Below are positions 33,310 to 34,415 of a stretch of 64,000 bases of DNA, one piece after another (positions within the stretch are counted from its first letter, which is position 1; each line of letters opens with the position of its first letter). The notes beneath the pieces were generated by a model. That model saw only the letters and a program-made list of their open reading frames with translations, had not been told where the DNA came from and did not search any database. A program made the position numbers and the translations under genes. Location: positions 21,342-85,341 of the forward strand of contig CAZKAD010000001.1 of the NCBI GenBank assembly GCA_964550845.1, read 5' to 3'. The DNA comes from an uncultured Gammaproteobacteria bacterium. Its GTDB lineage: Bacteria > Patescibacteriota > Patescibacteriia > Magasanikbacterales > UBA922.

Positions 33310-34415
33310 ATGAACTTCCTCATTACACACGGTCCTTGTCTTGATGGTGAAACTTGCGCTTTGTTTCTCAAACAATGGGCAGATGAGCAAAAAGAAACAT
33401 TGCAAACGGTATTTTGTTTCGCTGGGCAACTTTCAGTTGATTTGATTAAGAGGAAAATGCCTGAGAATACATGTCGAATCTTTATTTGCGATTTGACTGT
33501 GAATCAAGAAACACTCGAATATCTTAATAATCTGAACAAAGAAGTCTGGATCATCGATCATCATCGATCATCATCGATCATCATCAAAAACTTTCCAATG
33601 TTCCTGAAAAAATTACTTATCTTCATCGAGATCGTTGTGCGGCGTGGATTGTTTGGGAAAAATTTCGATCGAATTCTGAAGCAGTCACTCCAATTCTTCG
33701 GGGAGTTCAGCCTGAACTTCTTCAATATATCGACGAACAAGACCGAGGTCTTCATCACCGTCCTTATTTGAAAGAAATCATTTCTGCAGTTCATTTTGAG
33801 AAGAAGAGGATTGGACTTGAAAGAGTGTTTCAAGAATTTTCTGTCGATCGATATATTCAAATCGGAACGATTCTTGCTGAATATCGAAAAACCCAGGTCG
33901 ATGAGATGATTAAATATGGCTACAAACGAAAGTTTAATTGGAAGGGAAAAGAATATAACGTCTTGTTGATGAGTGGAGATCGAACTCTCCGAAGTGAGGG
34001 TCTCGAAGAATCAAAGGCTGACATTACCATGTTTTACACTTACGATGCAGCAACGAATGAATTTTGGGTTGCTTGTCGAAGTCAAGAACTTGATCTTTTG
34101 CCTATCATTTCAAATATCACCTGGTGTAGCGGGAATGAATTTCGAAAAGGTGGAGGGCATCCTAAAGCTTGCGGTTTTACCGTCAATCAAGCAACCACCT
34201 TCGAATTCATCACAATGATGGAAGGATCGGTGTCGCCTGCAAGTTATCATCAACCGAGTCAGACAGGATATAAAATTGAGCTACAGGGACTTGTCCCGCA
34301 AAAGTTTTGCTTTCCAATTTTCTTCCATAGTTGGATTAACGATTTGCTCAAAGCAATTGAGAAATTTGATCAAGTAATTTCTGAAGGGACTTCGAGGGTT
34401 GACGAAATTTATTAA
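33310..34415 (+). pseudogene. DHH/DHHA1-family phosphoesterase gene disrupted by a frameshift inside a 10-bp tandem triplication
   Basis: Frame 1 gives MNFLITHGPCLDGE...EVWIIDHH. Frame 0 downstream gives QKLSNVPEKITYLHRDRCAAW...GGGHPKACGF (DHHA1 GGGH). The shift occurs in (ATCATCGATC)x3 at about 33551-33580. One or four copies would restore the frame. Promoter AAAATTGA at 33276-33283. Confidence 0.7.

Follow-up and report, generated by a model that had tools for sequence, protein, structure and literature searches.

Why does a gene for a predicted phosphoesterase encode its catalytic DHH motif twice, in two different reading frames, and terminate in the first of these frames before the second domain of the enzyme is reached? 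The locus that raises this question occupies positions 33310-34415 of a 64,000-nucleotide stretch of contig CAZKAD010000001.1 (NCBI GenBank assembly GCA_964550845.1, positions 21,342 to 85,341 of the forward strand), hereafter the window, which, judging from its sequence, comes from a nucleocytoplasmic large DNA virus (NCLDV) with ~36% G+C. A first-pass annotation of the sequence proposed a slippage-prone on/off switch, a pseudogene, or a sequencing error. The analysis described here favors a plain pseudogene or null allele, lends no support to the switch and makes a sequencing error unlikely: the locus is probably a recent, strain-specific loss-of-function allele of a DHH/DHHA1 phosphoesterase gene that was made by replication slippage. 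The principal elements of the locus are the following:

33310-33771, + strand: 5' fragment of the broken DHH/DHHA1 gene, a 153-amino-acid (aa) open reading frame (ORF) with its stop codon at 33769-33771
33531-34415, + strand: the -1 frame, which holds the remainder of the gene and ends with a TAA stop at 34413-34415
33550-33585, no strand: the 10-bp array, ATCATC followed by three copies of GATCATCATC at 33556-65, 33566-75 and 33576-85, as delimited by Tandem Repeats Finder (TRF) and by comparison with 20 single-unit alleles

In the TRF output, the array is a perfect tandem repeat, (ATCATCGATC)x3.6 at 33550-33585 (period 10, 100% matches, score 72), and the sequence at 33547-33591 reads TGG ATCATC GATCATCATC GATCATCATC GATCATCATC AAAAAC; thus, the placement of a threefold tandem array at the DHH motif in the first-pass annotation was accurate. 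Compared to every other allele, two units (20 nt) are surplus. By our estimate, the chance of 26 consecutive self-matches at lag 10 in 64 kb of the composition of the window is ~1e-10; given this estimate and the absence of exactly these 20 bases in 20 related contigs, the array is not a chance occurrence. Because the period is 10 nt (10 = 1 mod 3), three units cycle through all three frames, which is why DHH is seen in both of the frames concerned, the first set of DHH codons at 33556-33564 belonging to the frame that opens at 33310 (frame A) and the second set at 33576-33584 to the -1 frame.

Frame A starts with the ATG at 33310, runs through MNFLITHGPCLDGE...NKEVWIIDHHRSSSIIIKNFPMF... and ends at 33771. 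Residues 1-85 of its product are genuine and include motif I (H7 and D12), motif II (D61) and motif III (D83-H84-H85), and the 68 residues that follow stem from the repeat or from out-of-frame sequence. Open from 33531, the -1 frame (...SSSIIIDHHQKLSNVPEKITYLHRDRCAAW...RKGGGHPKACGF...RVDEIY) encodes the second DHH, the continuation QKLSNVPEK..., motif IV (D138 of the repaired protein), the linker helix, the DHHA1 domain with its GGGH motif (G274-H277, within GGGHPKACGF) and an extra C-terminal helix. The stops at 33771 and 34415 agree with the earlier proposal that the upstream frame breaks and that another frame carries DHHA1. Exactly the same 153-aa product is also recorded for the NCBI contig (259,314 bp) and for three Logan runs. 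When the gene was rebuilt in silico with n copies of GATCATCATC, a single copy gave a 361-aa ORF with WIIDHHQKL, four copies gave a 371-aa ORF with WIIDHHRSSSIIIDHHQKL, and two, three or five copies shifted the frame. The arithmetic of the first-pass annotation, in which three copies add 20 nt and break the frame and four restore it at the price of an insertion, is reproduced by this exercise.

The strongest evidence on the origin of the array comes from related contigs. Altogether, 24 contigs covering the site were fetched via an identical or near-identical neighboring kinase gene, 20 of them from other samples (GCA_020049755.1 and GCA_020047435.1 from NCBI, JGI 3300038404, five ENA assemblies and twelve Logan runs). 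All 20 carry a single GATCATCATC and read ATT ATC GAT CAT CAT CAA at the site, with WIIDHHQKL in an intact ORF of 345-381 aa (contig-truncated copies excepted), at 83-97% nucleotide identity. The remaining 4 of the 24, namely the window itself and three contigs from runs SRR10036080, SRR10036081 and SRR10036082 (L003-L005), contain the three-unit allele and read ATC ATC followed by the three units; these three contigs are 100% identical to the window across 1850-2506 bp, so that a single strain is represented. Counting the units in other isolates, the check suggested in the first-pass annotation, thus returned one unit in 20 contigs and three in four identical ones, and it supports the view that one copy, giving WIIDHHQKL, is the ancestral state. 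The nearest intact allele (L010) shows 97.2% nucleotide identity to the window, and WIIDHHQKL is likewise present in the two closest protein clusters, P0001 (380 aa) and P0002 (355 aa), both of them intact. Alleles with two or four units were found neither among the 24 contigs nor in the protein clusters, and the 90%-identity clusters included no truncated members besides the window's own 153- and 215-aa pieces. Scans of IMG/VR and of JGI metagenome contigs that were guided by the protein detected no relatives; a scan with the exact DNA of the right array junction gave no match in viral contigs and, in metagenome contigs, a single chance match to an unrelated sequence (L014). The expanded lineage differs from the others at one more position adjoining the repeat:

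33550-33552, + strand: Ile codon ATC, which is ATT in all 20 single-unit alleles; the synonymous T>C change is private to the expanded lineage

With this substitution, the direct repeat in the flank, at lag 10, is 6 nt long (ATCATC) instead of 3 nt (ATC).

Whether the truncation matters depends on what the intact protein is. The matches of the repaired window protein itself to the Pfam DHH domain (E 7e-4, 20.3 bits vs the gathering cutoff of 28.1) and to DHHA1 (E 1.9e-3) are both below the cutoff, and a direct sequence search of PDB with an intact relative returned noise only (histone H1, E 0.26). An exhaustive HMMER search with P0001 as the query (E up to 1e-3) yielded 225 homologues, 70 of which were aligned. 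Invariant in this alignment, in P0001 numbering, are H26, D31, D80, D102-H103-H104, D157, R269 and G295-H296, and G293-G294 are nearly invariant (≥90%); these columns comprise DHH motifs I-IV and the GGGH motif of DHHA1, and the first seven residues, from H26 to D157, correspond to H7, D12, D61, D83-H84-H85 and D138 of the repaired window protein. Among the 70 members, 52 match DHHA1 and 40 match DHH in Pfam. The family profile run against PDB retrieved 6mtz (4e-18) and NrnA (5e-12), along with TmPDE, GdpP and RecJ. With the 70-sequence alignment, AlphaFold2 (AF2) produced a model with a predicted local distance difference test score (pLDDT) of 90.5 and a predicted template modeling score (pTM) of 0.81, compared to a pLDDT of 41 in the single-sequence mode, and the top Foldseek matches in PDB all belong to the DHH family (6mtz, TmPDE 5o1u, NrnA 4ls9, Rv2837c 5jju and RecJ; probability 1.00, E ~1e-10). 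Motifs I-IV of the DHH domain, the GGGH motif of DHHA1 and the two-lobed fold with a linker helix are all present. Taken together, the profiles and the model allow membership in the DHH/DHHA1 phosphoesterase superfamily to be considered established, and Mn2+-dependent activity is predicted; relatives, family profiles and the fold search all agree with the first-pass identification of a DHH/DHHA1 phosphoesterase gene with a downstream DHHA1 domain. Because this is a genuine enzyme family with conserved catalytic residues, the truncation would represent a real loss.

The window protein shares the two-domain fold, motifs I-IV and GGGH with stand-alone DHH/DHHA1 phosphoesterases (NrnA/NrnB nanoRNases, pAp phosphatases, TmPDE, Rv2837c and the GdpP catalytic domain), and it is alike in fold and motifs to the products of the "DHH family phosphohydrolase" genes of Marseilleviridae, Klosneuviruses and Pithovirus-like viruses; like both of these groups, it consists of ~300 aa plus a tail. 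It is, however, very divergent, with 11-22% identity to the structural matches, and differs from the known enzymes by an additional C-terminal strand and helix (~60 aa). The best viral structural matches are the DHH phosphohydrolases of Marseillevirus LCMAC101 and Lausannevirus, and it is for this reason that we call the virus Marseillevirus-like. Among the roles suggested for phage DHH enzymes is the degradation of cyclic nucleotide signals (PMC7824862).

The state of the sequence downstream of the shift bears on the age of the lesion. Scored against six full-length alleles of equal length, the window has three private nucleotide changes in this region (codons 241, 242 and 254), all synonymous in the abandoned frame; across the 276 downstream codons, it differs from the nearest intact allele by 5 synonymous and 2 non-synonymous substitutions, and no additional stops or indels were found downstream of the shift in comparison with intact alleles. 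The downstream frame is undecayed and the break is therefore recent; until very recently, purifying selection was acting on the gene. A separate feature of this region (33650-33960 of the window and its equivalents in contigs L001-L024) is the mosaic structure of the DHH alleles. Two sharply different haplotypes of a ~35-aa central segment, ILAEYRKTQVDEMIKYGYKRKFNWKGKEYNVLLM and ILNEHRQRQIEEMIKFGYKRQMKWQGKDYQILFI, are variously combined with N- and C-terminal variants, the latter including a distinct 345/364-aa type, which implies recombination among co-circulating strains.

The course of events would then have been as follows. The ancestral virus gene would have read TGG ATT ATC GAT CAT CAT CAA (WIIDHHQ), and in one lineage, slippage or unequal pairing of short direct repeats would have duplicated GATCATCATC. 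The putative ancestral ATTATCGATCATCATC already contains ATC at lag 10, which could be used for slipped-strand mispairing. The likeliest path has two steps, from one unit to two and from two to three, the first probably via the ATC or ATCATC microhomology and the second presumably eased by the 16-nt repeat that the first would have created; a 26-nt array would slip more readily. The net gain of 20 nt shifts the frame directly past the DHH motif, such that normal translation can yield solely the 153-aa protein, with motifs I-III but devoid of motif IV and of the entire substrate-binding DHHA1 domain; the enzyme is therefore expected to be dead, and the 276 downstream codons persist as an untranslated, still undecayed relic. 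In principle, the array could contract to one unit or grow to four, reopening the frame; nothing points to exploitation of such changes by the virus. Frameshift pseudogenes and null alleles that arise by short tandem duplication in large DNA viruses and bacteria display the same features, that is, tandem duplication of a short direct repeat, an added length that is not a multiple of 3, truncation confined to one lineage with intact relatives, and undegraded remains. There is no mechanistic difference from these cases, and that the duplicated unit happens to encode the catalytic DHH is a coincidence.

Alternative explanations have to be weighed against this scenario. The three-unit count could be an assembly or sequencing artefact, the true genome carrying either one unit or at least four units in frame. 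The runs behind the three supporting contigs have consecutive accessions and may derive from the same material as the NCBI assembly. Furthermore, if Logan contigs are de Bruijn assemblies with k=31, an array of at least 46 nt would make a 10-node loop, the shortest path through which is exactly 36 nt, so that a 4.6-copy allele could collapse to 3.6 copies. Yet the NCBI contig and the separate assemblies of the three runs, four in all, are identical at every base; the Logan contigs extend unbroken for 1-1.4 kb beyond the array on at least one side, where a loop would normally break them; and the 259-kb NCBI contig was presumably made by other software. Moreover, neither short-read nor long-read platforms are known to produce clean 20-nt tandem duplications by error, and a one-unit truth would require ATT>ATC to be an error as well. 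An artefact thus appears unlikely. Programmed recoding, whereby a -1 ribosomal shift in the 240-nt overlap of the two frames (33531 to 33771) would produce a full-length enzyme with a short insertion (WIIDHHRSSSIIIKKLSNV...), could draw on the A-rich AAA AAC that directly follows the array (C AAA AAC, 33585-33591). This heptamer, however, is not a canonical X XXY YYZ, given that its first base is C; the downstream 120 nt fold no better than shuffled sequences (z = -0.19); the shift is not conserved, with all 20 relatives using a single frame; and a run of five A residues is too short for efficient transcriptional slippage. We rejected a -1 ribosomal frameshift on the grounds of the heptamer, the fold and the unshifted relatives, and consider recoding extremely improbable.

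The remaining alternative is a contingency locus, in which slippage would toggle the phosphoesterase between ON (one or four units) and OFF (two or three), for reversible loss and regain. Much about the array fits: as in the tetranucleotide tracts of Haemophilus and Neisseria, the repeat is intragenic, its unit length is not divisible by 3 and the frame states alternate, with one and four units in frame; the frame past the array has not decayed; the synonymous ATT>ATC change, private to this lineage, improves the perfection of the array; and the same strain expands other repeats. The comparison with bacterial contingency loci fails at the population level. In all 20 other alleles, the site is not a repeat but a single unit with an imperfect flank, and therefore no tract has been conserved for its mutability; in place of a spectrum of copy numbers, the 24 contigs present two states, 20 with one unit and 4 identical ones with three, the OFF state is limited to one strain, and the intermediate two-unit and the four-unit alleles are missing from every cluster and contig examined. 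The 3.6 copies of a 10-mer fall far short of the tract lengths of known contingency loci, and the putative four-unit ON form would carry 10 inserted residues directly past the catalytic DHH motif. An established switch is, accordingly, quite unlikely. More improbable still is a newborn reversible switch in this strain, in which the array, having reached 3.6 perfect copies, would slip to four units (in frame, with a duplicated DHH motif) or back to one often enough in large infecting populations to turn the enzyme off and on. We know of no contingency-type locus shown in a giant virus, and a newborn switch, if real, would be the first one described, toggling a nucleotide or nanoRNA phosphoesterase.

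Several considerations weigh against the interpretation of the locus as a slippage-made null allele. The copy counts rest on assembled contigs, and a within-sample mixture of copy numbers or a collapsed longer array may be compatible with them; the three SRR runs may not be independent biological samples; an intact downstream frame is equally expected of a functional switch or a recoding site; and the loss of enzyme activity is a prediction from domain architecture.

Slippage in this strain extends beyond the DHH motif, with a further array just downstream of the gene:

34454-34524, no strand: 22-bp unit consisting of TTAAACG and a hairpin (TTAAACGTTCCGGAGGAACTGA), 3.2 copies, intergenic, beginning 40 bp past the stop codon of the DHH gene

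At this site, the closest strains (L010 and L018) have one copy of TTAAACGTTCCGGAGGAACTGA and the others have none, so that this array is a second 1-to-3 expansion in the same strain. Intergenic arrays of TTAAACG plus a hairpin, with units of 20-29 bp, were also observed at 8772-8832, 12755-12848, 18881-18936, 53933-54001 and 59511-59577. They lie at or between the 3' ends of genes, with hairpins such as GTTCC-GGA-GGAAC and GTCT-CTTCA-AGAC, and the TAA stop of the DHH gene itself forms part of TTAAACG; by their sequence, these arrays look like reiterated 3'-end or termination signals. Another intergenic array, with a 39-bp unit (x2.7, 32062-32165) that contains a palindrome (CCGAGAAAC...GTTTCTCGG), has one copy more in several related contigs, as inferred from overlapping BLAST segments. 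Within the well-supported genes of the window, all tandem arrays of at least three copies have periods divisible by 3, with the sole exception of the DHH array, a pattern that would follow if expansions that break the frame were usually purged. In this strain, slippage looks like a general mode of mutation: the genome is repeat-rich and slippage-prone, intergenic and in-frame changes of copy number are tolerated, and the 10-bp expansion is a rare out-of-frame event that has so far been neither purged nor reverted.

Some longer duplications in the window involve gene ends. A perfect 44-bp repeat (x2.1, 43341-43432) with the palindrome GTTCCATGGAAC is located near the 3' end of the ORF at 42880-43452, and a 94-bp repeat (x2.1, 39036-39234) spans the end of the ORF at 37757-39193; these periods are not multiples of 3, and the C-termini of both ORFs may be altered. 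Upstream of the DHH gene, the last ~23 nt of the kinase gene (ACATCAAAAGAGATAAAATTGAT, 33220-33242) recur at 33261-33284, in the 75-nt spacer that precedes the DHH start. Many relatives have an ATG farther upstream from which the spacer can be read in frame, so that gene callers assign them 380 aa and not 361 aa; the spacer of the window is interrupted by stops.

Among the neighbors of the locus are several genes with readily recognizable products:

2824-5781: family B DNA polymerase
16275-18800, - strand: kinesin motor with a Hint/intein insertion
47117-50275, - strand: capping enzyme with a guanine-N7 methyltransferase
54051-56987, + strand: RNA polymerase Rpb1

The window further encodes the small subunit of ribonucleotide reductase, an XPG/FEN1 nuclease, a serine recombinase and many protein kinases, and its exact proteins are also recorded for the 259,314-bp NCBI contig. 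In the kinesin ORF (841 aa), the motor domain (E 4e-95) is interrupted by a Hint/intein-like segment at residues ~115-190, and an intein in a viral kinesin gene is unusual. The Rpb1 ORF comprises just 978 aa, its end falling ~64 positions into Pfam domain 5. The remainder of the subunit is not encoded next to it, where an unrelated minus-strand ORF and a helicase are found instead; a split gene or an intron may be the explanation. The 64 kb also contain a lineage-specific expansion of kinases, with five or more protein-kinase-like genes (6996-8768, 21063-22580, 23217-24566, 32258-33235 and 34865-35998), two of which flank the DHH gene. The segment at 39320-42187 contains two pairs of abutting ORFs of equal length (220+220 aa and 256+256 aa) without Pfam matches; we considered and rejected these pairs as split genes, given that they look like equal-length tandem paralogues, and likewise rejected 5771/6996 and 59623/62976, which look like separate genes when ATG starts are used. 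Pfam provided no indication that any of these pairs is a single broken gene.

In practical terms, a single disrupted DHH/DHHA1 phosphohydrolase gene is the appropriate annotation for the ORFs at 33310-33771 and 33768-34415, which should not be listed as two hypothetical proteins. Beyond annotation, the significance of the locus is small, as it adds a new instance to a well-known kind of mutation. Should copy numbers in the reads prove to be mixed, reversible gene inactivation in giant viruses could be studied cheaply at this locus. For the biology of these viruses, the finding means that at least one natural strain can dispense with the DHH enzyme, although it is widespread in Marseillevirus-like and other giant viruses, and that short tandem duplications actively generate variation in the virus population, both within genes and in intergenic signals.
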